Shown: piece by piece, positions 47,489 through 62,467 of the stretch
How the letters are laid out: each line of letters starts with the position of its first letter
Position numbering within the stretch: position 1 is the stretch's first letter
The notes under the pieces: model-generated
The model's input: only the letters and a program-made list of their open reading frames with translations
Told to the model about the DNA's origin: nothing
The model's database searches: none
From: a bacterium
Lineage (GTDB): Bacteria > Acidobacteriota > Blastocatellia > HR10
Direction: 5' to 3'
Assembly (NCBI GenBank): GCA_041640655.1
Contig: JBEPZV010000008.1
Coordinates: 1 to 64,000, forward strand
DNA length: 64,000 nt
Position numbers and translations under genes: made by a program

Positions 47489-48025
47489 ATGAGCGACACG
47501 CTGGGCTTGCTATTCCGAACCGCACAGCGCACCCCGCTTCGGGTGGGGATTCTCATCGCACTGCTTCTTATGCTCGCATTCTCGCTTGCGGATACGCAGC
47601 GCGCGGCACGGCCGGATCGCATCGCTTTCGAAGTGAGCGCGGATCGGCTGGAGTACGTCTACAACCTCATGCCTCCGCGCCCTCCCGTTGTCCCCGGACC
47701 CACCGTGCGCGTGCGCATCCGCCTCACGAATGAGTCGGCCGAAGCGCTCGCGCTCGATTTCCTCAGCTCGCAACGGTTCGATGTCCTTCTGGAGGATGAG
47801 CGAGGGGAGGTCGTCTTTCGCTGGTCCGAAGGCAAAATCTTCCTCCCCGTGCTCGGCCGTGAGACTGTGAAGCCTGGAGATTCGCTCGTCTACGAGGCGA
47901 CGTTCGCGCTGCCGGGTTCGGATCGGGGGATTCTGCCTGCCGGACGATATGTGCTGCGAGGGCTGCTTGTGGCCGAGACGCCATTTTCCGGCGCCCTGCC
48001 TGTGCGGATCGTCCACGCCCACTAG
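47489..48025 (+). CDS. Exported protein with BsuPI (intracellular proteinase inhibitor)-like domain
   Basis: F.SSQRFDV...VFRWSEGKIF...LPAGRYVL. Confidence 0.7.
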   Translation: MSDTLGLLFRTAQRTPLRVGILIALLLMLAFSLADTQRAARPDRIAFEVSADRLEYVYNLMPPRPPVVPGPTVRVRIRLTNESAEALALDFLSSQRFDVLLEDERGEVVFRWSEGKIFLPVLGRETVKPGDSLVYEATFALPGSDRGILPAGRYVLRGLLVAETPFSGALPVRIVHAH

Positions 48026-48043
48026 CTGAAGGAGCCGCGCACG

Positions 48044-49246
48044 TTAGGGATCTCGTGCCGCCAGGCGCTCCAAGTACTGCGGGGACATCGCGCGCAACCG
48101 TTCCACTTCCTCTGGGAGGACCTCAAGCACATATGCGATCTCCTCGCGCGTGGTGTCCTTGCTCAGGGAGAACCGCAGGCTCCCTTGCACGAGATCGCGC
48201 GGGCGCCCGAGCGCCAGAAGCACATGCGAAGGTTCGAGCGATCCCGAGGAGCACGCAGCGCCCGTCGAGACGGCGATGCCCCGCAGATCGAGCCGGATCA
48301 GGAGCGCTTCCCCATCGAGGAACTGGAAGCTGAAGTTGGAGATGTTCGGGACCCGCTGCTCGCGATGGCCATTTCGCAGGACGAAGGGGATGCGCTCTTC
48401 GATCCCTTGCTCCAGCATGTCGCGCAATGCGCGCATGTGTCGGATGCGGTCGGGAAGCTGCTGGCGCGTCAATTCAGCCGCTCGTCCGAAGCCGACGATG
48501 GCGGGCACATTCTCCGTCCCCGAGCGCCGATCCCGCTCATGATGACCGCCGTCCATCTGGCGCACGAGGCGCACCCCGCGCCGCAGATAGAGGGCCCCGG
48601 CGCCTTTCGGGCCGTGAATCTTGTGCGCGGAGAAGGTCAACAGATCCACCCCCAGCTCATCCACGTGCACGGGCATCTTCCCCACGGCCTGCACGGCGTC
48701 GGTGTGGAGATACGGATAGGGCTGACCGCGCTCGGCGCGCACGCGCCGGACGAGTTCGGCGATCTCGCGAATGGGCTGGATCGTGCCGATCTCATTATTG
48801 GCGAGCATGATGCTGATCAGGATCGTGTCGGGGCGAAGCGCGGCATGAACGTCCTCGATGCGCACGAGCCCGTCCGGAGAGACGGGCAGATAGGTCACCT
48901 CAAAGCCGCGCCGCTCCAAGGCCCGACAGCTCTCAAGTACAGCGGGATGTTCGATCTGCGAGGTGATGAGATGCCGCCCCCGCTGCCCATGCGCTTCGGC
49001 GATCCCCTTCAGGGCGAGATTGTCCGACTCCGTCCCGCCACTGGTGAAGATGATCTCCGAGGGATCGGCACCGATCAACTCGGCCACGCGCGCGCGCGCC
49101 TCCTCGACGGCCGCGCGCGCTCGCTGCCCGAAGGCGTGAACGGACGAGGCATTGCCATACTCCTCCCGGAGATACGGGAGCATGGCCTCCAGCACCTCGG
49201 GGTCAAGGCGCGTCGTCGCCGCATTGTCCAGATACACACGCCGCAT
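48044..49246 (-). CDS. iscS: Cysteine desulfurase, IscS/NifS type
   Basis: YLDNAATT, FTSGGTESDN, SAHKIHGPKG, STGAACSSG. Confidence 0.95.
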   Translation of the reverse strand: MRRVYLDNAATTRLDPEVLEAMLPYLREEYGNASSVHAFGQRARAAVEEARARVAELIGADPSEIIFTSGGTESDNLALKGIAEAHGQRGRHLITSQIEHPAVLESCRALERRGFEVTYLPVSPDGLVRIEDVHAALRPDTILISIMLANNEIGTIQPIREIAELVRRVRAERGQPYPYLHTDAVQAVGKMPVHVDELGVDLLTFSAHKIHGPKGAGALYLRRGVRLVRQMDGGHHERDRRSGTENVPAIVGFGRAAELTRQQLPDRIRHMRALRDMLEQGIEERIPFVLRNGHREQRVPNISNFSFQFLDGEALLIRLDLRGIAVSTGAACSSGSLEPSHVLLALGRPRDLVQGSLRFSLSKDTTREEIAYVLEVLPEEVERLRAMSPQYLERLAARDP

Positions 49247-49283
49247 ATGGAAAATTGTGCCGCCTCCGTCTAGAATGTGCAAC

Positions 49284-50081
49284 GTGCGGCCCAGCGGTGT
49301 GATCACGCTCCTGACCGACTTCGGCCTCGCCGATTTCTTCGTCGGGGCGATGAAGGGGGTCATTCTCTCGATTCATCGCGAGGCCGTGATTGTTGATCTC
49401 ACGCACCTGATCCCCCCCCAGGACATCTACGCGGCGGCTCTGACGCTGGCCGACTGCTACGCGACCTTTCCCGAGGGCACGATCCACGTGGCCGTCGTCG
49501 ATCCGGGTGTCGGCTCCGAGCGACGCGCCGTGCTCATCGAGACCGCGCGATATTTCTTCATCGGTCCGGACAATGGGCTCTTCACCCTCGTCGTGGAGAA
49601 TGAGTCGCTGCAGCGCGCCATCCAGATCACGGCCGAACGCTTCTTCCGCCATCCGGTGAGCCGGACATTTCACGGGCGAGATGTCTTCGCCCCGGTCGCG
49701 GCGTGGCTCGCGCGCGGCGTGCCCCCATCGGAGTTCGGGCCGGAAGTCTTGGACCTGACGCGCCTGCCGATTCCTCGCGTGGAACGCCTGGACGAGAAGC
49801 GATGGCGCGGTCAGGTCATTCACGTGGACCGCTTCGGCAACCTGATCACCAACGTGACGGCGCGCGATGTCCCCCTGGAGGCTCTGCGCCAGGGAGGGAG
49901 ACTCCTCGTCAACGATCATGAGGTGTCCGCCCTGCACACGCACTATCACGAGGCGGCTCCGGGGGAACTCTTCGCCCTGGTGGGCAGCACCGGCCGCGTG
50001 GAGATCGCCGTCCGAGAGGGATCAGCCGCTACAGCGCTGGGCGTGGGTCGAGGCGCGACGGTGGAGATTCTTCTCCCGTGA
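49284..50081 (+). CDS. SAM hydroxide adenosyltransferase (DUF62, fluorinase/chlorinase superfamily)
   Basis: ITLLTDFG, VVDPGVGSERR, GPDNG, TFHGRDVF, DRFGNL; start is GTG 49284 or ATG 49275. Confidence 0.9.
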   Translation: MRPSGVITLLTDFGLADFFVGAMKGVILSIHREAVIVDLTHLIPPQDIYAAALTLADCYATFPEGTIHVAVVDPGVGSERRAVLIETARYFFIGPDNGLFTLVVENESLQRAIQITAERFFRHPVSRTFHGRDVFAPVAAWLARGVPPSEFGPEVLDLTRLPIPRVERLDEKRWRGQVIHVDRFGNLITNVTARDVPLEALRQGGRLLVNDHEVSALHTHYHEAAPGELFALVGSTGRVEIAVREGSAATALGVGRGATVEILLP

Positions 50082-51294
50082 GGGGAGCGGCTCTCTCCAC
50101 TGCTCGATAAATGAAGCGGGCGCGCCCGAAGCGCACCTCGAATCCGTTTCGCAGCAAGTTCTCCCGCACGCGCTGTCCGTTGACGTACGTGCCGTTGGTG
50201 CTCCCCAAATCCACGACGACGAAACTGCCGCTCGGATGCCGGACGAACTTCGCATGGTGTTTGGAGACGGTCGGATCGTCAATGACGAAATGGTTATCGA
50301 GGGTCTTGCCCACGGTGACCACGGGGCGATCGAGGATGAACGCGATCTGCTCGCGACCGTCTGGCAGTACCTGCACCAGATGCGGTTGATGCACGCGCGG
50401 GGGTGAAGTCGCGGGCAGCAGACTTGCCCCGCAGCAGAGGCATACGGTCACGTCCGCGCGCTGTTCTCTTCCACACGCGGGACAGACGCGCATCTCCCGC
50501 TCGGGAATCCGCGCGCCACACGCGGCGCACGCCTGCCCGATCGTCCCCACGCGCCCGCAGTTCGAACAAGGCGCCAGGCCCGTGAGCAGCATCGTCCCCT
50601 GCCGATGCGGTGAGCGCGCGACATGCCGCACGGTCCGGACCTCGACGTACGCGAAAATGGCGAACATGAGGAGCGCGACGATCCCCATCACCAAAGCGTT
50701 CGGCAGCAGACCGTGCTGTCCGGCCGAGAGCAGTGCATCGAACAGCGCATGCAGCAGTGCCGCCCTCATCCACCCCCGAGCGATCGTGCGCGCGCGCACA
50801 CTTCCGACATTGGGCAGCATCTTCGCCTGACTGAGCGCCAATCCCCAGAAGGCCGCGAACAACGCATGCCCGGGATTGGAGAGAATGCCCCGCACGATGA
50901 AGATCTCACTGCCGAATCGGCTCAAGTAGAGCACGTTCTCAGCCGCCGCGAACCCCAGCGCTGCTGCGGCCCCGTAGATGACGCCATCCACCGGCTCATC
51001 GAACTCCGGCCGGCGGTAGGCGTAGCTCATGACGGCCCACAGCTTCACCGCCTCCTCCACCGGGCCGACGACGAGAAAGAGGATGAGCCACTCGCCCACG
51101 AGATTCGATCCGAAGAGCCCCGAGAGTACCAGGGCGCCCACCGTGTTGAAGACCATCGCCGGCAGCGTCGCCACCGCGCCGAGCACGAACGTCCACACGA
51201 TCGTGCGCAGCGGCTCTCGATCGTACCAGTCCTGAAACCAGAACCAGAGGAGCCACAGCACACAGGGGATGAGCGACAGAGCGAGCGTCTCCAT
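50029..51294 (-). CDS. PrsW-family intramembrane protease fused to a double zinc ribbon and FHA domain
   Basis: DREP, GPVEEAVK, FAAAEN, GHALF, LHALFD; CSNC-CAAC-CPAC-CLCC; GK...VSKHHA...STNGTYVNG. Confidence 0.88.
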   Translation of the reverse strand: METLALSLIPCVLWLLWFWFQDWYDREPLRTIVWTFVLGAVATLPAMVFNTVGALVLSGLFGSNLVGEWLILFLVVGPVEEAVKLWAVMSYAYRRPEFDEPVDGVIYGAAAALGFAAAENVLYLSRFGSEIFIVRGILSNPGHALFAAFWGLALSQAKMLPNVGSVRARTIARGWMRAALLHALFDALLSAGQHGLLPNALVMGIVALLMFAIFAYVEVRTVRHVARSPHRQGTMLLTGLAPCSNCGRVGTIGQACAACGARIPEREMRVCPACGREQRADVTVCLCCGASLLPATSPPRVHQPHLVQVLPDGREQIAFILDRPVVTVGKTLDNHFVIDDPTVSKHHAKFVRHPSGSFVVVDLGSTNGTYVNGQRVRENLLRNGFEVRFGRARFIYRAVERAAPLTGEESPPSRLDPRPAL

Positions 51295-51295
51295 C

Positions 51296-53032
51296 TCACG
51301 CCGTCCGTTTCACGACGAGCAGCGTCATATCATCGGCCGGGCGGGCCTTCCCGAGAAAGTGGCTGAGGGCCTCCTCGATACGATCGCGCAGGGCGGCGGC
51401 GCGCTGCTCGCGAGAGCGCCGCACGACCTCCACCAGGCGCGCGACGCCGAATTCCTCCCCGTGCTCGTTCGCGCTCTCACTGATCCCATCGCTGAAGAGG
51501 ACGAGCACGTCTCCCGGCTCCAACCGGAGGCATTGCTCCTCGTACAGCGTCTCCTCCAGGATACCGACGGGAATCCCCCCCGTCTCCAGGAACTCCACTG
51601 ATCCGTCCGCGCGCATGAGCAACGGCGGGTTATGCCCGGCGTTGGTGTAGCTCAACTCGTGCGCGCGTGGATTCAACCGCGCGAGCCAGAGCGTCGCGAA
51701 CTTATTCGGAGCCGTCGTCTCGCAGAGATAGCGATTGATGGCCGCCATCATCTCGGCGACCGAAGCCGCCGAGCGCGCCTGAGCGCGTACGCTCGCATGC
51801 AGCGCCGACATGAGCATCGCCGCATCCATCCCCTTGCCGCACACATCGCCCAGGGCGAGCAGCAACGTCCCTTCGGGCCCGCGAACGAAGTCGAAGTAAT
51901 CCCCGCCGACTTCGTAGCAGGGGAAGCTGATGCCCGTCAGATCGTACCCCTCGACCTCGGGCGGCGCGACCGGCAGCAGTTGAAATTGCAGATCGCGCGC
52001 TTGAGCCAACTGGTGCTTGATCCGCTCATTCTCCAGGTGCTGCTCCAGCAGCAGCGCGTTCTCGATCTTGATCGCCGCGACCGACGCCACGGTCGTGAGC
52101 AGTTGCAAATCTTCCTCGGTGAACGCGCCCGCATTCATCGGATTGTCCACGTAGATCATCCCCACGACCGACGAGGGTGTCTCCCGCCGACCCCCCAGCA
52201 GGGGAACGGCCATGATCGAACGGATGCCGCTCAGCAGAATCGAGTCGCGCTGGCGGAAGCGCTCGTCCGTCTGCGCATCAAAGGTGAGCACCGAGCGTCC
52301 GCGCTCGATGACCTCCTCCAGGATCGAACGGCTGATGCGCACGACTTGCTCGACCACCGACGGCTCCTGTCCGCGATAGCCCGCGATCTTGCACGACCAT
52401 TCTCCCTGAGCGCCTCGCAGCAAGAGGAACACGCGCTCGGCGGGGACCGCCTCCAGCACCAAACCAACGATCTGCCGGAGCACCTCATCGAGCGAGAGTG
52501 GAGAGAGCAAGGCGAGGCCGACCTGAGTGAGCACAGCCAACAGTCGTTTGCTCCGCTCGACCTCAGGCGGCAATCCGGGCACGGTGACCGAACGCGCCGC
52601 CTCGAGCAGAGAGACGATCTCGGGAGTCAGCGGCGGACGCTTCACGGATGATGTCGAGGTCAACGTCTCCGGGTGCGCGACGATCACGTCGCCAGTCCCC
52701 AGTTCGTCCATCGGGACCTCGGCGCCAGAAATCGGCTCGGCAGGAGGGAGGAGCTCCAGTACCGTCTCCCCCACCTGAAGGCGATCGCCTGCAGCGACCG
52801 CGACCGTCCCCCGAATGCGGGCGCCGTTCAGATATGTGCCGTTGGCGCTCCCCAAGTCCGTCACCCACCACGTCTTCCCCTCCTCGCGCAGCTCCGCATG
52901 CACGCGCGAGGTGAAGGGATCGTCCACACAGAGATCGCTGCGCACCGAACGCCCGATGACGATCCGCCGTTTCCGGATCTCAACGACGATCGGCGCTCGA
53001 CCCGGCGAATACACCCTGAGCTTCACCATCAT
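51296..53032 (-). CDS. FHA-GAF-PP2C (SpoIIE/RsbU-type) phosphatase
   Basis: IGRS...SRVHA...SANGTYLNG; GAF SIMAVPL...GMIYVD; VGGDYFD, GDVCGKG, NAGHNPP, SDGISE, DDMT. Confidence 0.92.
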   Translation of the reverse strand: MMVKLRVYSPGRAPIVVEIRKRRIVIGRSVRSDLCVDDPFTSRVHAELREEGKTWWVTDLGSANGTYLNGARIRGTVAVAAGDRLQVGETVLELLPPAEPISGAEVPMDELGTGDVIVAHPETLTSTSSVKRPPLTPEIVSLLEAARSVTVPGLPPEVERSKRLLAVLTQVGLALLSPLSLDEVLRQIVGLVLEAVPAERVFLLLRGAQGEWSCKIAGYRGQEPSVVEQVVRISRSILEEVIERGRSVLTFDAQTDERFRQRDSILLSGIRSIMAVPLLGGRRETPSSVVGMIYVDNPMNAGAFTEEDLQLLTTVASVAAIKIENALLLEQHLENERIKHQLAQARDLQFQLLPVAPPEVEGYDLTGISFPCYEVGGDYFDFVRGPEGTLLLALGDVCGKGMDAAMLMSALHASVRAQARSAASVAEMMAAINRYLCETTAPNKFATLWLARLNPRAHELSYTNAGHNPPLLMRADGSVEFLETGGIPVGILEETLYEEQCLRLEPGDVLVLFSDGISESANEHGEEFGVARLVEVVRRSREQRAAALRDRIEEALSHFLGKARPADDMTLLVVKRTA

Positions 53033-53645
53033 TGGCCTCCGTGACGACCCGCGTCCCACTCAGCAGATCATGCCACCCCCGTCCCTGCCCATCCACGAGC
53101 ATCCAGAGGAATCCCAGTCCGAGCGGGAGCGCCGCCAGCCCGTAGCCGAGCGTATGACGCAGGAGCGAACGTCCCCAAGAGAGGGGCTGGCCATCGGCGC
53201 GCACGATCTGGATCCCCACAAGCGCCATCCCCACTGACTGCCCGCGCACGCTGCAGAGTATAAGATGGTTCACCAGCAAAACCAAGCACGCCGCGAGCGC
53301 GCTCCACATCGCCAGCTCCGCCAGCAGGAGGCGCCCCCGAAGGGCGACGGCCCCCATGACGGTCACTCCCATCGCTCCCAGAAGCAACACCAGGTCGAGA
53401 AAGAACGCCACGAGTCGAACCACCAGGGGTGCCGGGGCGCGCCCGCCCGCGCGAGGAGGAGATTCCACCTCCTGCCACGGCATCGTGATCGCGCGCTCTC
53501 GAGGATCGAAGGCGGCAATCGTCGGGTCGGCGGGAGATTCGACCGCGTGCGCTGCTGCCGTCACCAGTGGCGCGCCACAGGCTCGGCAGAATCTCGCTCC
53601 CGGGCGCTGCGGCATGTGACATCGCAGACAATGACTCGTCACCAT
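52980..53645 (-). CDS. Zinc ribbon + RDD family membrane protein
   Basis: CLRC...FCRACG; RLVAFFLD, GQSVG, LRH, WHDLLSGTRVV. Confidence 0.85.
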   Translation of the reverse strand: MVTSHCLRCHMPQRPGARFCRACGAPLVTAAAHAVESPADPTIAAFDPRERAITMPWQEVESPPRAGGRAPAPLVVRLVAFFLDLVLLLGAMGVTVMGAVALRGRLLLAELAMWSALAACLVLLVNHLILCSVRGQSVGMALVGIQIVRADGQPLSWGRSLLRHTLGYGLAALPLGLGFLWMLVDGQGRGWHDLLSGTRVVTEANDGEAQGVFAGSSADRR

Positions 53646-55147
53646 TCGCCCTCATGCCGGAAAAGCAGGGACACCTCACCGATCTGCACGCGATCTCCAT
53701 CGTGGAGCGCCTGTGGGGTTCGCGGCGGGAGCAACCGACGACCGTTGACGAGCGTCCCGTTGACGCTCGCCAGGTCCTCAATCCAATATCGCCCCTCCGC
53801 CCGCCAGATGCGCGCATGCCGGCGCGAGACCGTGGCCCCCGGATCGTACGGGGACAAATCCACGTCCGGGAAGATGCCGGAGATCGGATCGGCACGACCG
53901 ATGAGATTCGACTCCTTGAGCAAAGCTCGCGTTGCCCGCACTTCCCCCGAGCGCGGATCGCAAACGAACAGATAGGCGCTCGCCCGCATGGGCTCGACTT
54001 CGATCGGTTGACGTGCGCCGCAGTACGCGCAATAGAGATCGTCCGCTCCGATGCTCACCCCGCAATAGCTGCAGTAGACCGTGCCCACGTCCAGGCGAGG
54101 CGCGACTTCTGATCCCGCGCGGCGGACGAGATCGCCGAACGCCATGCGATAGGCGTGCTCCAGACGATCGCCGCACTGCTCGCGCAGGAAGGCCAGATGT
54201 TCTTCCAGCGCGCTCTTCATCTCGCGCGCCGAGGCGAACCGATCTTCGGGCGCATAGGCGACGGCGCGCATGAGGAGGCGCTCCATCTGGGGCGTGAGCT
54301 CGGGAGTATATTGGCGCGGCGTCGGATTCCGCGTGAAGTCGAAGATCAGCAGCGGTTGATCGCGCGGGTCTACCCCCGTCAGCAGATGAAACATCGTGGC
54401 GCCCAGCGAATAGATGTCCGAACGCGGCTCGACCTGCCCAGAGAACAGCTCCGGCGGCGCATACCCCATTGTGCCGACGGCCGTCACCCCCTTCTCCTGA
54501 GGGGCGACGACGCGCGCGATCCCAAAGTCAATGAGTACGATGCGATTGGCCTCGGGATCAATCATGATGTTGGCCGGTTTCAGGTCCCGATAGATGATCG
54601 GCGGCTGCCGCGTGTGCAGGTAATCGAGCACATCGCAGATCTGAATGGCCCACATCGTGACGGTCAGCTCGTCGAAACGCCCGCCGACCAACTGCAGCCG
54701 CGTGGCCAGATCCCCCCCCGAGATGAACTCCATGACGAGATAGTATCGCCCCCCTTCGACGAAATGGTCATAGATGATCGGGATCGAAGGGTGTCGGAGG
54801 CTGGCCAGAAGCCGCGCTTCGCGCTGGAAGTCGAGGATGGCTTTCTCCCGAAGTGCGGGATCGGAGAACATCTCGATCATCTCCTTGACGGCTCGCACGG
54901 CACCATTCAGATGGCGGTCACGAGCTTGATAGACATTCCCCATGCCCCCTCCCCCGACCCGCCGCACGATCTCATAGCGCCCGCGTAAGACCGCACCAGG
55001 AGGCAACTCCGCGAGCGGGGCGAAAGCTCCCGGCCTCCCGCCCTCCATCTCCCCGAATGAGCCGGAGAAGACTTGCCGCGCCCCACATTCGCCGCAGAAG
55101 AGATCCTCCGGGTGAACGGGTGATCCGCACCGCGCGCAGAACTTCAT
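53639..55147 (-). CDS. Hanks-type Ser/Thr kinase with N-terminal and internal zinc ribbons and C-terminal FHA
   Basis: CARC..CGEC; GGGGMGNVY, AVKE, YRDLKPANIM, DFG, GTMGYAPPE; CSYC..CAYC; IGR...VSRRHA...SVNGT. Confidence 0.93.
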   Translation of the reverse strand: MKFCARCGSPVHPEDLFCGECGARQVFSGSFGEMEGGRPGAFAPLAELPPGAVLRGRYEIVRRVGGGGMGNVYQARDRHLNGAVRAVKEMIEMFSDPALREKAILDFQREARLLASLRHPSIPIIYDHFVEGGRYYLVMEFISGGDLATRLQLVGGRFDELTVTMWAIQICDVLDYLHTRQPPIIYRDLKPANIMIDPEANRIVLIDFGIARVVAPQEKGVTAVGTMGYAPPELFSGQVEPRSDIYSLGATMFHLLTGVDPRDQPLLIFDFTRNPTPRQYTPELTPQMERLLMRAVAYAPEDRFASAREMKSALEEHLAFLREQCGDRLEHAYRMAFGDLVRRAGSEVAPRLDVGTVYCSYCGVSIGADDLYCAYCGARQPIEVEPMRASAYLFVCDPRSGEVRATRALLKESNLIGRADPISGIFPDVDLSPYDPGATVSRRHARIWRAEGRYWIEDLASVNGTLVNGRRLLPPRTPQALHDGDRVQIGEVSLLFRHEGEW

Positions 55148-55716
55148 ATCCCTTCGATGAGAAACCGCAAGAAGGTCTTCCCCACGATGATCTCGTCGCC
55201 GTGCCGCAGCGGCACGGGCTGATGCGGGTGGAGCCGAGGCCCGCGATTCACGAACGTCCCGTTCAGGCTCCCCAGATCTTCGATCCAGAATCGCCCCTCC
55301 CGATAGAAGATGCGCGCGTGGCGGCGAGAGACCTTGGCCTCGGGATCGTCTTCGTCCAGATCGATCTCGGGGAAGATCCCGTGCTCGGCATCCCACCGTC
55401 CGAGCATCACCTCCGACTCCCAGATGGGGAACTCCCGACCGACACGACCGCCGCGCACAAGCACCAATTTCGCTCGCGGCCGGCGATCTGGGGGGGAACG
55501 GTCTGGAAGCGCCGCGCCTTCAGCCGGAGAGACCATCGGCGGCCTCTCGGCGGGCGCGCGTCCGGAGGGTCGAGCGCTCGGCTTCGGTGAATCCGCCGCC
55601 TCTTCTGCAGGCGTCGCCTGCCCGCTCTCAGCGTCCGACGCCAGGCTCACCCCGCACGCGTCACAATACGTTGAGTCCTCCAGATTCTCCATCCCGCACC
55701 GGCGACAGCGGATCAT
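55144..55716 (-). CDS. Zinc ribbon-FHA protein (FraH-like architecture)
   Basis: CRRC..CDAC, Pro/Ser/Ala linker, LGR...VSRRHA...SLNGTFVN; SD GGAGG. Confidence 0.9.
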   Translation of the reverse strand: MIRCRRCGMENLEDSTYCDACGVSLASDAESGQATPAEEAADSPKPSARPSGRAPAERPPMVSPAEGAALPDRSPPDRRPRAKLVLVRGGRVGREFPIWESEVMLGRWDAEHGIFPEIDLDEDDPEAKVSRRHARIFYREGRFWIEDLGSLNGTFVNRGPRLHPHQPVPLRHGDEIIVGKTFLRFLIEGI

Positions 55717-55739
55717 CGGACGCGCGCCTCCTTATGAAT

Positions 55740-55781
55740 TGCATCTTGATGCAGAATACCACAAAAAGTCGCTCGCCGCAA
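55740..55781 (-). promoter_or_regulatory. Promoter of the FHA operon (TTGCGG-N17-TATTCT) with palindrome TGCATC-N2-GATGCA over +1
   Basis: Palindrome at 55740-55753, -10 at 55753-55758, -35 at 55776-55781. Confidence 0.6.
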
Positions 55782-55788
55782 AAAGCCC

Positions 55789-55817
55789 TTGATTTTCTTG
55801 CCGGTGGTGACTATATT
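55789..55817 (+). promoter_or_regulatory. speD promoter TTGATT-N17-TATATT
   Basis: Directly seen, divergent from the FHA operon promoter. Confidence 0.65.
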
Positions 55818-55936
55818 GAACAGTCTTGCCGAATCATGTGGCCGGCAGGGAGGAGAACCTGAACGTTTCGGGTTCGCCTCTCGTTGGTTGAACGAAGGAG
55901 GTGATCACGATTCCGATTCGAGGAGGGTGAAGGAAC

Positions 55937-56347
55937 ATGGCCATCGGCATTCACATCCTCGGTGAGCTGTATGGTGTCAATCGTCAAACCCTCAGCCGCG
56001 TCGAACATCTGGAGCCACTCCTGCTGAAAATTCTCCGCGATCACGATTTCAAGATCCTCGCCAGTTCCTTCCATCAGTTTCATCCCTTCGGCGTCACCGG
56101 TTTCGTCCTCCTGGCGGAGTCGCATGTGAGCGTGCACACGTGGCCGGAAGAAGCCTACATCGCGCTGGACATCTTCAGCTGTAGCTCCGAAGAGCAGGCC
56201 CTGCGCGCGTTCGAGGCGATCTGCAAGGAGTTGGCTCCGGTGGAGGTGGATCGAAAGATCATTGATCGGGGCGTGTCATGGAGAAGCCTGGGAGTATTCT
56301 CCTCACCATCCTACGAGACGGTCAGCGGAGCTTGTGGGACATCCTGA
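55937..56347 (+). CDS. speD: S-adenosylmethionine decarboxylase proenzyme (class 1B)
   Basis: HQFHPFGVTG, LAESHVSVHTWPE (E-S cleavage site), DIFSC. Confidence 0.92.
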   Translation: MAIGIHILGELYGVNRQTLSRVEHLEPLLLKILRDHDFKILASSFHQFHPFGVTGFVLLAESHVSVHTWPEEAYIALDIFSCSSEEQALRAFEAICKELAPVEVDRKIIDRGVSWRSLGVFSSPSYETVSGACGTS

Positions 56348-57327
56348 GCCGCTGGCCCTATTCGATTCGCGAACTGCGGGAGACTCTCGAACGTCTTCAC
56401 GCTGAGGGGTGGATCGAACGGTCAGGCGATCGGTGGGCGGAGATTCGCCTGACCGAACGGGGACGCGAGGCCAGTCGAGCTCTGGCCGGAGTGGAAGACG
56501 AAGGCGGGGCCTGTCCCGCCTGTGAGGGCAAGGGGATTCGTCTCCCCGAAGCGTGGTGGCGTCGCTTTCGTGAGTTGACCGAGGAGCGCCCGCTGCCGGT
56601 GGCCGAATATGATCAGGGCTTCATGCGTCCGGAAGACGCTGTGGCGCGCGTCGCCTTCATGCATCGAATGGGCGATGTGGCTGATCGCGAGATCGTGCTC
56701 ATCGGCGACGACGACCTGGTCAGCATCGCCCTGGCGGTGACCGGACTGCCCCGCCGCATCGTGGTCATTGACGTGGACGAACGCCTGGGCGCGTTCATCG
56801 AGCGCGTGAATCGCGAACAGCGATTCGCCATCGAGTTTCGCCCCCTCGATATCCGGCGTCCACTCCCGCCGGATCTCACCCAGCGCTTTGACGTCTTCGT
56901 CACCGATCCGGTGGAGACCGTGCCGGGATTCGAGTTGTTCCTCTCGCGGGCGGCCGCCAGTCTGCGCGGCCGCTACGCAGCCGGCTACTTCGGATTGACG
57001 ACGCTCGAGGCCTCGCTCTCGAAATGGCACCGCCTTCAGCAGCTCGTGCTCCGAATGAACTTCGTCATCACGGATCTCCTGCGCGATTTCAGCCTCTACC
57101 CCGAGCGCGAGAATCGGTGGGAACGATTCTACGCGAGCTATGCCATGATGTCGCTCTTTCATATCGAGGGGCACCTGCCCGACCGCGATTGGTACCGCTC
57201 TTCGTTCTTCCGCATCGAGGCGATCGCGCCGCCGCAGCCCACGATCCTCGGAGAATGCGCCCTCTCGGAGACGGAGCTGTATTTCGATGAGGAGACTCTG
57301 GCCACGCCTCGCGCCAGCGTGAGTTGA
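56278..57327 (+). CDS. bpsA: Branched-chain polyamine synthase / N4-bis(aminopropyl)spermidine synthase (DUF43)
   Basis: N-terminal wHTH, C..CEGKG, RP....YDQG, IGDDDLVSIAL, DVDERL, FDVFVTDP.ET. Confidence 0.88.
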   Translation: MEKPGSILLTILRDGQRSLWDILSRWPYSIRELRETLERLHAEGWIERSGDRWAEIRLTERGREASRALAGVEDEGGACPACEGKGIRLPEAWWRRFRELTEERPLPVAEYDQGFMRPEDAVARVAFMHRMGDVADREIVLIGDDDLVSIALAVTGLPRRIVVIDVDERLGAFIERVNREQRFAIEFRPLDIRRPLPPDLTQRFDVFVTDPVETVPGFELFLSRAAASLRGRYAAGYFGLTTLEASLSKWHRLQQLVLRMNFVITDLLRDFSLYPERENRWERFYASYAMMSLFHIEGHLPDRDWYRSSFFRIEAIAPPQPTILGECALSETELYFDEETLATPRASVS

Positions 57328-57331
57328 AGCG

Positions 57332-59622
<2,291 letters not shown>

Positions 59623-59626
<4 letters not shown>

Positions 59627-60102
59627 GGATGAGCAGGGGTCGCATCGAGCATTCTTCCGACGTTCACGAGAAGAGCGCGCCTGCCCCTGCCTCGGAGTGG
59701 GAACGCGCCTCGATGATCCTCGGCGTGGCCGTGCGCGCGCTGCTGCCGTTGCTGTTGCTGTTCTCGATCTTCCTGCTTCTGCGAGGTCACCATGCGCCGG
59801 GAGGGGGATTCGTCGGCGGACTCGTCGCGGCGGCCGCCGTGGCGCTCTACGCTTTAGCGCATGGGGCGACGGCGGCGCAACAGCTGTTGCGCTTCTCTCC
59901 TCGAGAACTGATCGCCGCCGGGCTCATGACGGCCTTCGCCAGTGGTCTGGTGGGGCCGCTCACGGGAGCCCCCTTTCTCACCGGGCGCTGGGCGAAGGTG
60001 GGCCATCTGGAGTTGGGGACGCCGCTGCTCTTCGACGTCGGCGTGTACCTGGTCGTCATCGGCGTCACCCTCTGGATCATTCTGACGCTCGCGGAGGAAT
60101 GA
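59623..60102 (+). CDS. mrpB: Mrp antiporter subunit B
   Basis: [20 protein letters not shown]; exact start uncertain. Confidence 0.92.
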
Positions 60103-60104
60103 GC

Positions 60105-60452
60105 ATGGAACTGCTGCTGGCCGTCGTCATTGGAAGCCTGTACGCGACGGGCCTTTACATGCTGCTGCGGCGCAGCGTCGTGAAGCTCATCATCGGGCTG
60201 GGCCTCCTCTCCAATGGGAGCAATCTGCTGATCTTCACCATGGGCCGCCTGGTTCGCGGTCGGCCTCCCATTGTCCCCGAAGGCGAGTCGAGCGTTCCCC
60301 CTCCCTTTGCGGATCCCCTCCCACAGGCGCTCATCCTGACGGCTATCGTCATCAGCTTCGGCGTGCTCGCCTTCGCGCTCGTGCTCATTCATCGCGCGTA
60401 TCAAAAGGTTGGGACGGATGACCTCGATGACTTGAAGACGACCGACACGTGA
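60105..60452 (+). CDS. mrpC: Mrp antiporter subunit C
   Basis: [17 protein letters not shown]. Confidence 0.95.
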
Positions 60453-60470
60453 CGTCTGGAGAAACGCCCC

Positions 60471-61994
60471 ATGCGGCTCATCCTCCCCATCGCGATCCCG
60501 TTGGTGACGGCGATCCTCGGGCTCGTCGTCTGGCGATGGCGGACGGCGCAGCGCGGACTGGGTGTTGCCGGAGCGGCCGCCTTGCTCATAGCTTCCCTCG
60601 AGCTCCTGAAGAGCGTGTGGCAGCAGGGGCCGCAGGCGACATGGATCGGGAATTGGCCCGCGCCCTTCGGTATCACGCTGATTGCGGACCTGCTGAGCGC
60701 GATCATGGTCGTGCTGGCCGCCGTGATCGGTCTCGCCGTCGCCCTCTATTCGCTCGCGCACATAGACCCGGCGCGTGAGGCCTTCGGCTATTATCCCCTC
60801 CTTCACATTCTCCTCATGGGCGTGTGCGGCGCCTTTTTGACGGGCGATCTCTTCAACCTCTACGTCTGGTTCGAGGTCATGCTCATGGCGTCCTTCGTTC
60901 TCCTGGCCCTGGGTGGAGAGCGCGCCCAACTGGAGGGCGCGATCAAGTACGTCACGCTCAATCTGATGGCCTCGGCGTTCTTTCTGACGGCCGTCGGGCT
61001 ACTCTATGGGGTCGTAGGGACGTTGAACATGGCCGATGTCGCGCTGAAGATTCGCCCGCTCGCGTCGTCCTGGATCACGAGGTCCATAGCGTTTCTGCTG
61101 CTGACGGCCTTCGGGATCAAAGCGGCCATCTTCCCCCTCTTCTTCTGGCTCCCGGCCTCCTACCACACCCCTCCGGTCGCCGTCTCGGCCGTTTTCGCCG
61201 GACTGCTCACGAAGGTGGGCGTTTATGCGCTTCTTCGCGTCTTCACGCTGATCTTTCCCGATGACGGGCGGACAATTCCCACCGTGATCCTCGCGCTCTC
61301 CGCCCTCACAATGCTCACGGGCGTCTTGGGAGCCGTGGCCCATGGCGAATTCCGACGCATCCTCTCGTTTCACATCATCAGCCAGATCGGGTATATGATC
61401 CTGGGGCTCGGGCTCTTCACGACGGCCGGGCTCGCGGGCTCGATCTTCTACATCATCCACCACATCGTCGTCAAAACCAACCTCTTCCTCGTCAGCGGCC
61501 TCGCTCACGCCGTGCATGGCAGTTTCGATCTGAGTCGGCTCGGCGGCCTCTATCGAACGCATCCGGGTCTGGCAGTGCTCTTCCTGATCCCCGCTCTCTC
61601 CTTGGCGGGTCTGCCACCGCTGTCGGGATTCTTCGCGAAACTGCTTCTGGTCCGCGCCGGCCTGCACGCGGAGCAGTGGGGGATCGTCGCCGTTGCTCTC
61701 GGAGTGAGCTTGCTGACCCTGCTCTCCATGATGAAGATCTGGGCGGAAGTGTTTTGGAAATCCAAGGAGGCCGATCCACCGGCTGAGGATTCTCTCGCTC
61801 TGCCCGTCTCCCCTGCAGCCGAGCGCATCGGGATGCCGTCGCGATTGGGCCTTTGGTCGAGCGCCGGGCTCGCGATCTTGACGGTGATGATCGGCCTGGG
61901 CGCGGACCTGGTGCTCGCGTTCGCCGAGGCTGCTGCTGAGCAACTGCGGAATCCCGATCTCTACATCTCCACTATGCAGAGGGGGCGTCCATGA
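60471..61994 (+). CDS. mrpD: Mrp antiporter subunit D
   Basis: [28 protein letters not shown]. Confidence 0.95.
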
Positions 61995-62467
61995 CCTTCC
62001 TTGTGTGGAATCTCCTGTTGGCCCTCGCCTGGGTCGTGCTGACAGGGCGCTTCACGCCGGGGAACTTCCTGGCCGGGCTCGTGCTCGGCTACGGCGCGTT
62101 GCTCTTCGCGCATCGGGCCCTTGCAGGCCCCTCGCCGTATTTTCGCAAGGTCCCGCATGTGCTGGGTCTCGTTCTCTTCTTCTTGTGGGAACTGATCCTC
62201 TCCAGCCTGCGCGTGGCCTACGATGTGCTCACGCCGACGCACCACATGCGTCCGGGGATCGTGGGGATTCCTCTGGATCTCCGCACGGAGGTAGAGATCA
62301 CTCTCTTGGCGAATCTGATCACACTGACGCCGGGGACCCTCAGCCTGGAGGTCTCTCCAGACCGGCGCACGCTCTATATTCACGTCATGTACATTGACGA
62401 TGCGGATGCCGTGCGCCGCAGGGTGAAGGAGGGGTTTGAACGGCGCATTCTGGAGGTGTTGCGATGA
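61991..62467 (+). CDS. mrpE: Mrp antiporter subunit E
   Basis: [12 protein letters not shown]. Confidence 0.95.

Follow-up and report, generated by a model that had tools for sequence, protein, structure and literature searches.

Does an operon that joins a protein kinase and a phosphatase to phosphothreonine-binding FHA domains and an intramembrane protease form a closed signalling circuit whose output is proteolysis, or is the protease one of several possible clients of a more widely used switch? The question is raised by a locus of a Blastocatellia bacterium (assembly GCA_041640655.1), within positions 1 to 64,000 of contig JBEPZV010000008.1; we refer to this whole stretch of 64,000 nucleotides as the window. 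Five co-directional open reading frames (ORFs) on its minus strand span 50029–55716 and encode, in order from 55716 to 50029, a zinc ribbon (ZnR)–FHA adaptor (g1), a ZnR–Hanks kinase–ZnR–FHA protein (g2), a ZnR–RDD protein (g3), an FHA–GAF–PP2C phosphatase (g4) and a PrsW–double ZnR–FHA protease (g5). We find that this operon is real and conserved; it represents an uncharacterised system, but not a fundamentally new one. Across the Blastocatellia as a whole, the conserved unit is a cassette of adaptor, kinase, RDD protein and phosphatase, and the PrsW–FHA protease is a lineage-specific add-on to that older four-gene core.

This division emerges from the comparison of related loci. Within the genus, all five genes were collinear in 4 of 4 loci. 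Among one-genome-per-species contigs with a full-length g5 (36 at ≥300 bits; L057 and L063 were dropped from the count because their g5 matches fell under this threshold), g4 lay directly upstream of g5 in 29 of the 34 loci with at least 2 kb of upstream sequence, and of the 27 loci that extend 6.5 kb or more upstream, 23 had the whole of g1–g4 before g5. The remaining four comprised one locus with g2–g4 only, one (L053) with g1, g3 and g4 without an above-threshold g2, and two with none of these genes. Genes outside the cassette varied by locus and included Lnt, an intein-bearing DnaB, TPR proteins and others. Conservation of the gene order in other genomes, on which a first-pass annotation of the operon had staked its proposal, thus holds both in the genus and among more distant relatives. 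The pairwise-identity matrices of the five proteins correlated with r of 0.82–0.94 (32 sequences), which is consistent with inheritance as a unit and is not independent evidence of interaction.

A survey of 151 Blastocatellia genomes, in which PrsW–FHA was called at E ≤ 1e-60 and the kinase at E ≤ 1e-90, separated the core from the protease. A kinase orthologue was present in 146 of the 151 genomes (145 of 150 without G129, which is flagged as unpublished), and the cassette was near-universal in the class, usually single-copy and distributed by family. The PrsW–FHA orthologue was present in 55 of the 151 and was concentrated in particular families (f6 38/38, f1 6/7, f10 6/9, f8 2/34, f7 1/14, f5 0/39, f2 0/3). 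The 14 loci that were taken around the kinase in genomes without an adjacent g5 all kept g1, g2 and g4 in order, with an RDD gene between g2 and g4 in 13 of them (including L118; L112 has no room for one), and were followed after g4 by unrelated, variable genes (methyltransferase, GNAT, TPR, type II secretion system ATPase). Because the kinase occurs in 146 genomes as against 55 for PrsW–FHA, and because the core is kept where no PrsW–FHA was found, PrsW is best described as a lineage-specific client on a class-wide phospho-switch, although a gene that escaped the search of these genomes need not be missing from them. Outside the class, 201 genomes sampled from the same phylum gave strong matches only in two further families, f26 (8/8) and f59 (2/2), and three loci from these families encoded a kinase–FHA protein with no g1, g3 or g4 alongside. 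The first-pass annotation had described a self-contained writer–reader–eraser circuit ending in proteolysis; the kinase, four FHA domains and PP2C phosphatase are indeed intact in one conserved unit, but the difference between 55 and 146 genomes speaks against a self-contained system with proteolysis as its output.

Two further observations concern the related loci. Nine records of metagenome-assembled genomes (MAGs) with a Blastocatellia-type PrsW–FHA (L027, L029, L035, L036, L039, L048, L049, L051 and L055) are titled 'uncultured Clostridia', 'Heliomicrobium' or 'Heliobacteriaceae', titles that look mislabelled; in most of them the cassette is complete, in L035 and L049 PrsW–FHA stands by itself, and the L027 contig is also that of the same-genus genome G006. 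At L046:11263–13608, downstream of the cassette, the intein of the DnaB helicase gene carries a LAGLIDADG endonuclease domain.

Domain calls were defined by a Pfam scan with curated cut-offs. FHA domains are present in four of the five proteins (g1, g2, g4 and g5) and zinc ribbons in four (g1, g2, g3 and g5), with six CxxC..CxxC units in all (one in g1, two in g2, one in g3 and two in g5); several of the single ribbons score just under the Pfam cut-off, each still with its CxxC..CxxC pairs. Membrane segments are absent from g1, g2 and g4, and g3 and g5 are multi-pass. The genes are tightly packed: g1 and g2 overlap by 4 nt (ATGA), g2 and g3 by 7 nt (ATGGTGA) and g3 and g4 by 53 nt, and g4 and g5 are separated by 1 nt. 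(Note that the start of g4 is ambiguous between GTG 53059, ATG 53032 and ATG 53029; the overlap of 53 nt applies to 53032 and becomes 50 or 80 nt with the alternatives. The second Met of g4 is conserved in the orthologue alignment, which favours that start.) The scan and the sequence bear out the five-gene architecture, the junctions and the numbers of ribbons and FHA domains that had been proposed at first pass.

Kinases of the Hanks type are recognized by a Gly-rich loop, the Lys of VAIK, the Glu of helix αC, an (H/Y)RD..N loop, and DFG and APE motifs. As judged by these motifs, g2 is a Hanks-type Ser/Thr kinase with its catalytic motifs intact: the Gly-rich loop (residues 65–70), K88, E110, Y186-R187-D188, N193, D207-F208-G209 and A230–E233 are invariant in 42 sequences, as are two activation-loop threonines, T222 and T226. 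The Pfam scores of g2 are 142.9 bits for Pkinase (PF00069, cut-off 31.7), 63.8 for FHA (PF00498, cut-off 20.7), 37.0 for Zn_ribbon_3 and 29.4 for DZR, and the protein has no transmembrane (TM)-like segment and is predicted to be soluble. The adaptor g1 carries an FHA domain (64.6 bits, cut-off 20.7) and a Zn_Ribbon_1 match just under its cut-off (22.7 versus 25), with CxxC at residues 4 and 18; its FHA positions GR 106–107, SRRHA 130 and NGT 152 show conservation across 47 sequences. Since g1 is 37% identical to residues 356–500 of g2 over 175 aa (E 9e-27), it is a paralogue of the C-terminal ZnR–FHA module of the kinase.

The phosphatase g4 combines SpoIIE/PP2C (PF07228, 183.7 bits, cut-off 25), FHA (66.3, cut-off 20.7) and GAF (57.1) domains. 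Conservation across 53 sequences extends to the motifs GGDY.D (376), GDV.GKG (395), SDG..E (514) and DD.T (567), whose acidic residues are presumably the metal ligands of PP2C. A semi-conserved P-E-x-T-I in the linker between FHA and GAF, with T in 83% of the 53 sequences, was not relied on. FHA domains contact phosphothreonine through G-R, S-x-x-H and N-G positions, and all four FHA domains of the operon keep these positions (as G-R/K, S-x-x-H and N-G).

The third gene encodes an RDD protein (PF06271, 77.4 bits, cut-off 24.1; zinc ribbon 24.5, just under 25) whose eponymous residues R77, D84 and D193 do not vary among 42 sequences. TM-like segments lie at 69–135 and 166–184, and an AlphaFold2 (AF2) model has a mean predicted local distance difference test (pLDDT) of 82. 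A 2025 paper (PMC12419801), in the passage that concerns the family, calls the role of RDD unknown and describes a conserved intramembrane site facing the cytoplasm. As an observation in its own right, the AF2 model of the RDD domain (residues 72–206) can be superposed on the membrane domain of Pex2/10/12, the RING peroxins of the peroxisome: the match to 7t92_A had Z 10.6 and rmsd 2.9 over 129 residues at 20% identity, with the next match at Z 5.4 and Foldseek E-values of 0.016–0.05, although a Z under about 13 in helical bundles can reflect a common arrangement. A profile of the RDD alignment gave no match to PDB sequences at E up to 10, and a search for literature linking RDD with peroxins found none. 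The RDD region also weakly matches positions 337–473 of 476 of the PADLOC model PDLC04051, a PD-T4-6 kinase model (E 1.4e-4), which hints at kinase–RDD fusion proteins elsewhere; a search for such fusions among longer g3 homologues yielded only two matches, both PF26514 plus RDD. The predicted complex of the kinase with the RDD protein gave an ipSAE of 0.00 in both runs, but the controls did not fold, so that the value speaks neither for nor against an interaction.

In most relatives outside the window's genus (L043:6828–8024, L046:6126–7943 and 27 further loci), a sixth gene lies between those for the RDD protein and the phosphatase, and its product consists of a zinc ribbon, a long low-complexity linker rich in Ala, Pro, Ser and Thr, one TM helix and TPR repeats. 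Loci with this ZnR–TM–TPR gene have an RDD protein without a zinc ribbon, and the window's genus has ZnR–RDD and no ZnR–TM–TPR gene. We considered the two as strict alternatives and rejected the idea, as neither is present in L108, L109, L117 and L120, and L119 has ZnR–RDD plus a weak TPR match.

The protease g5 scores 138.2 bits for PrsW (cut-off 23.5) and 72.0 for FHA (cut-off 20.7); its ribbons fall below the cut-off but retain four CxxC. The four PrsW motifs (EExxK, FxxxE, H and H) are intact, with E80, E81, K84, F115, E119, N120, H143 and H182 invariant in 46 sequences. In its AF2 model (mean pLDDT 80.2), helices at residues 2–21, 29–41, 43–61, 65–90, 101–127, 130–159, 164–193 and 199–227 are followed by ribbons and a β-sandwich, in agreement with the roughly eight membrane helices that are given for the PrsW family in the relevant passage of PMC3482391. 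The FHA fold was tested by structure matching for g5: the model matched the FHA structures of GarA, OdhI, EmbR and FhaA (E 7.7e-8 to 6e-6, target TM-score 0.75–0.87), as well as the structure of the DgcB FHA domain with a phosphorylated N-terminal peptide.

The last membrane helix of g5 is followed directly by the motif S-P-H-R-x-G-T-x-x-L/M. Its residues S228, P229 and T234 are invariant, and all 46 sequences have L, M or V at position 237, three residues beyond the Thr. FHA domains prefer an aliphatic residue at position +3 relative to the phosphothreonine. Residues 230–238 form the sole internal stretch of the AF2 model with a pLDDT below 50, so that the segment is invariant yet, in the model, apparently flexible, as expected of a linear motif. 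The motif is kept in the two further FHA-bearing orthologues, and none of the 41 more distantly related PrsW proteins has it; 18 of these 41 were scanned with Pfam, and none had an FHA domain, one consisting of PrsW and a double zinc ribbon only. From its sequence, the Thr234 motif is the best candidate for a phospho-acceptor or FHA-docking site in the system.

The FHA readers of this genome form a closed set. The assembly (3.13 Mb in 128 contigs, 89.8% complete) has its relatives among the Blastocatellia of the phylum Acidobacteriota, and its closest named record is 'Bacterium HR10' (96% identity for g5); the host is a hot-spring-type acidobacterium with a small, thermophile-like genome. Only five FHA matches were found in the whole genome, four of them inside the 5.7 kb of the operon, a clustering that is not due to chance because its probability, by our own arithmetic, is about 2e-8. 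The fifth FHA domain belongs to a protein with a cytoplasmic FHA, a single TM helix (154–180) and a trypsin-like protease domain, so that in this genome every FHA domain that is not on the kinase, the phosphatase or the adaptor is on a membrane protease. Orthologues of this FHA–TM–trypsin protein occur in 49 of the 151 class genomes (f8 31/34, f9 4/4, f2 3/3, f1 7/7, f6 0/38, f5 0/39), a pattern partly complementary to that of PrsW–FHA. The genome contains two RDD matches.

We give an even chance to the view that the operon is a vertically inherited, class-wide Ser/Thr phospho-switch with an extra PrsW effector in this lineage. Domain content, the conservation of catalytic and phosphothreonine-binding residues, the conservation of the operon and the split between core and add-on support it directly; who would phosphorylate whom, the roles of Thr234, the zinc ribbons and RDD, and the substrates of PrsW, we infer. 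The kinase would autophosphorylate on T222 and T226 and mark partner proteins, and the four FHA domains (of adaptor, kinase, phosphatase and protease) would dock on the resulting phosphothreonines and assemble at the membrane. The phosphatase, recruited through its own FHA domain and gated by its GAF domain, would reset the marks. Thr234 of PrsW would be the likeliest mark, read either in trans or, as in GarA/OdhI, in cis by the FHA domain of PrsW itself, and its reading would switch the activity or substrate access of PrsW and hence the cleavage of membrane substrates. Since the proteins of the window's operon lack a sizeable extracytoplasmic domain, none stands out as the sensor; the signal may enter through the GAF domain, by way of a cytoplasmic ligand, or through RDD, and in relatives the TPR protein is another candidate. 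A fuller version of the same scheme, possible but speculative, is phosphothreonine-gated intramembrane proteolysis, in which the kinase and phosphatase would set the state of Thr234, the FHA domain of the protease or of the adaptor would read it, and a cytoplasmic small molecule sensed by GAF would thereby be coupled to membrane-protein cleavage; the zinc ribbons would mediate assembly on an RDD scaffold with a Pex2/10/12-like fold, and the FHA–TM–trypsin protein would be a second client.

Several findings weigh against the phospho-switch with PrsW as its effector. The genome encodes six Hanks kinases, so that five others could write the marks, and gives four SpoIIE-type matches, three besides g4. 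Kinase targets within the core are not evident, since no conserved Thr turned up when the alignments were searched across the g1 and g3 linkers. The g5 FHA domain of the window has Lys in place of the Arg (33 of the 46 sequences have R, 13 have K), and the restriction of the Thr234 motif to FHA-bearing PrsW proteins is confounded by orthology, the carriers forming one clade. Linkage between the core and PrsW is not obligatory, because PrsW–FHA lies on another contig than the core in G019 and G039 (among efflux, acyltransferase or HD-domain genes) and among unrelated genes in one Polyangia locus. Transcript evidence is likewise slight: contigs from one metatranscriptome library, 90–99% identical to the window, cover parts of all five genes and are a weak hint of expression, but they bridge no gene junction, and carry-over of DNA is possible. 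(In that run 15% of the sampled words matched, and with contigs only, depth, strand and gaps are uninformative.)

Some of these findings would be expected if the genes were co-located without being wired together. The core would then regulate another process, for example an envelope or lipid-linked one sensed by RDD, and PrsW–FHA would merely be co-expressed, with its FHA domain reading the marks of other kinases or acting independently of phosphorylation. The five other kinases, the unlinked g5 genes of G019, G039 and Polyangia, and family f5, which keeps the core with neither g5 (0/39) nor FHA–trypsin (0/39), all fit this account. However, g4 adjoins g5 in 29 of 34 loci with gaps down to 1 nt, and every FHA reader of the genome belongs either to the operon or to a further membrane protease, which together make mere co-location unlikely.

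We regard as doubtful, too, the output that had been assigned to the operon at first pass, regulated proteolysis by a closed writer–reader–eraser circuit, if it is spelled out on the pattern of B. subtilis PrsW–RsiW–σW as site-1 cleavage of an anti-sigma factor by PrsW, followed by site-2 cleavage and release of a sigma factor. The invariant active-site motifs of g5, its status as the only PrsW gene of the genome, and the genome's 10 matches to zf-HC2 (anti-sigma type) and several to M50 site-2 proteases, which could supply the substrates and the next step, are in its favour. But most of the class has the core without PrsW, and g5 scored 116.8 bits against the cut-off of 225 of NF033739, the equivalog model of B. 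subtilis PrsW (at NCBIfam's own cut-offs, no model matched any of the five proteins). Moreover, none of the Pfam-scanned genes within about 6–7 kb on either side encodes a sigma or anti-sigma factor, and no zf-HC2 match lies on the window's contig.

A third account pairs the two membrane proteins of the operon with each other: g3 would bind and inhibit PrsW, or be cleaved by it, as SppI does with SppA, and phosphorylation would relieve the inhibition. It draws on the report that SppI, a member of the RDD superfamily, complexes with and inhibits SppA (PMC7568657, in the part that treats this pair) and on the correlation between the identity matrices of g3 and g5 (r 0.91), a weak argument given that kin share history. 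PrsW and SppA, however, are not related as proteases; g3 and g5 are in every case separated by g4, and in most relatives by the ZnR–TM–TPR gene as well; and the primary partner of RDD is not PrsW, because RDD is kept beside the kinase in 13 of the 14 loci without an adjacent PrsW–FHA. An RDD–protease pair is therefore improbable. A kinase-based anti-phage defence or conflict system is highly improbable: in PADLOC, the kinase domain of g2 matches models for the PD-T4-6 and mad6 kinases (best E 1.1e-63), and TPR, zinc ribbons and FHA are known from conflict systems in the passages concerned of Kaur et al. 2020 (PMC7159879), but the matches to PADLOC-DB 2.0 cover only the generic kinase domain, with none for g1, g4, g5 or the ZnR–TPR protein, and the cassette is near-universal and usually single-copy in the class, is distributed by family and has housekeeping flanks.

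The operon lies between unrelated genes (Table 1). Its transcription unit likely starts at the leader of g1, as suggested by the sequence there. A scan of 49700–56400 for promoter and terminator consensus sequences gave counts at the expectation from shuffled sequence, with no signal above that inside the operon, and Rfam yielded no family in 48000–58000. Downstream lie a convergent S-adenosylmethionine (SAM) hydroxide adenosyltransferase-like gene and a class-V aminotransferase gene. The former ORF overlaps the 3′ end of g5 by 53 nt and, with its listed TTG start, also the aminotransferase gene on the opposite strand; its true start is probably further downstream, because its Pfam domain begins only at residue 51. 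Upstream are a divergent gene for a branched-chain polyamine synthase (BpsA_C) and then an Mrp-type antiporter operon. Branched polyamines are typical of thermophiles.

Table 1. Coordinates of the operon genes, of features within and before them, and of neighbouring or related genes (window positions unless another contig is named).
Feature	Position	Strand	Description
g1	55144-55716	-	190 aa, Zn-ribbon + FHA adaptor
g2	53639-55147	-	502 aa from ATG at 55147, ZnR + Pkinase + ZnR + FHA
g3	52980-53645	-	221 aa, Zn ribbon + RDD membrane protein
g3 RDD domain	52980-53432	-	residues 72-206
g4	51296-53032	-	578 aa, FHA-GAF-PP2C (SpoIIE-type)
g5	50029-51294	-	421 aa, PrsW-family intramembrane protease + double Zn ribbon + FHA
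Juxtamembrane motif S-P-H-R-x-G-T-x-x-L/M	50584..50613	-	g5 residues 228-237, directly after last membrane helix; candidate phospho-site
g1 leader	55717..55810	-	Shine-Dalgarno-like AAGGAGG 8 nt before g1 ATG
Class-V aminotransferase gene	48044-49363	-	downstream flank
SAM hydroxide adenosyltransferase-like ORF	49152-50081	+	downstream flank, converges on g5
Branched-chain polyamine synthase (BpsA_C) gene	56278-57327	+	upstream flank, divergent
Mrp-type antiporter operon	57332-62467	+	multi-subunit cation/proton antiporter
FHA-TM-trypsin gene	L107:4378-5634 = G000 contig C2 ~86378-87634		outside window

Clusters of kinase, PP2C and FHA genes are well known, as is regulated proteolysis of the PrsW type, but to our knowledge a direct wire between Ser/Thr phospho-signalling and PrsW proteolysis has never been shown. 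The operon offers a compact case, with one kinase, one phosphatase, four readers and a protease with a single invariant candidate phospho-site, in a small thermophile-like genome that has nearly all of its FHA domains in this one system. RDD proteins, a family of obscure function, are here placed in a defined and conserved signalling setting beside a kinase. The class-wide core, together with lineage-specific FHA-tagged proteases, shows effectors being plugged into a phospho-switch during evolution.

How new is the system? The first-pass annotation knew of no such cluster with RDD and PrsW–FHA fusions. Our search of full-text literature on PrsW, FHA, RDD, PP2C, Hanks kinases and Acidobacteria likewise found no description of the five-gene operon, and in this respect the system is uncharacterised. 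The fusions themselves, however, had been noted: a passage in Zhang, de Souza, Anantharaman, Iyer and Aravind 2012 (Biol Direct 7:18, PMC3482391) describes PrsW fused to FHA and zinc ribbon domains as probable signalling peptidases. That passage, a single sentence, has the same combination of PrsW, ZnR and FHA and the same inference of signal-responsive cleavage through the fused domains, and it is without the operon of kinase, PP2C and RDD, the phyletic analysis and the candidate phospho-site given here. SppA–SppI (YteJ) of B. subtilis resembles our locus in that, in the part of PMC7568657 devoted to it, an RDD-superfamily membrane protein is encoded with a membrane protease and regulates it; it differs in that SppA is a serine peptidase rather than a PrsW protein, in the absence of phospho-signalling, and in that the RDD protein here tracks the kinase and not the protease. 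With the PrsW–RsiW–σW system of B. subtilis, g5 shares the family (PF13367), the four conserved motifs and the multi-pass topology. Unlike B. subtilis PrsW, whose model NF033739 has 210 positions, g5 has a cytoplasmic ZnR–ZnR–FHA tail of 190 residues; no linked sigma or anti-sigma gene was found near it, and control would come from the cytoplasmic side via phosphorylation.

Other likenesses lie in phospho-signalling. The actinobacterial cluster fhaA-fhaB-pstP-rodA-pbpA-pknA-pknB likewise unites FHA proteins, PP2C, one or more Hanks kinases and membrane proteins in a conserved operon. In our operon, by contrast, the kinase is soluble and without a PASTA sensor, and FHA is fused to kinase, phosphatase and protease; the four FHA proteins scored 63.3, 40.7, 82.0 and 59.3 on the FhaB/FipA model NF049868 against a cut-off of 125, and a Pfam scan of the operon and its flanks found no SEDS or penicillin-binding protein domain. 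In the threonine-phosphorylation pathway of the type VI secretion system (T6SS), TagH/Fha1–PpkA–PppA, a kinase, a PP2C phosphatase and an FHA reader gate a membrane machine; the TagH model matched below its cut-off, and no T6SS genes lie near the operon. Finally, GarA/OdhI and Bdellovibrio DgcB are FHA proteins that bind their own phosphorylated tail. Like g5, they combine in one polypeptide an FHA domain with a flexible segment that contains a conserved Thr, and they provide the best structural matches of its FHA domain, whereas in g5 the candidate Thr lies between the membrane protease domain and the FHA domain.

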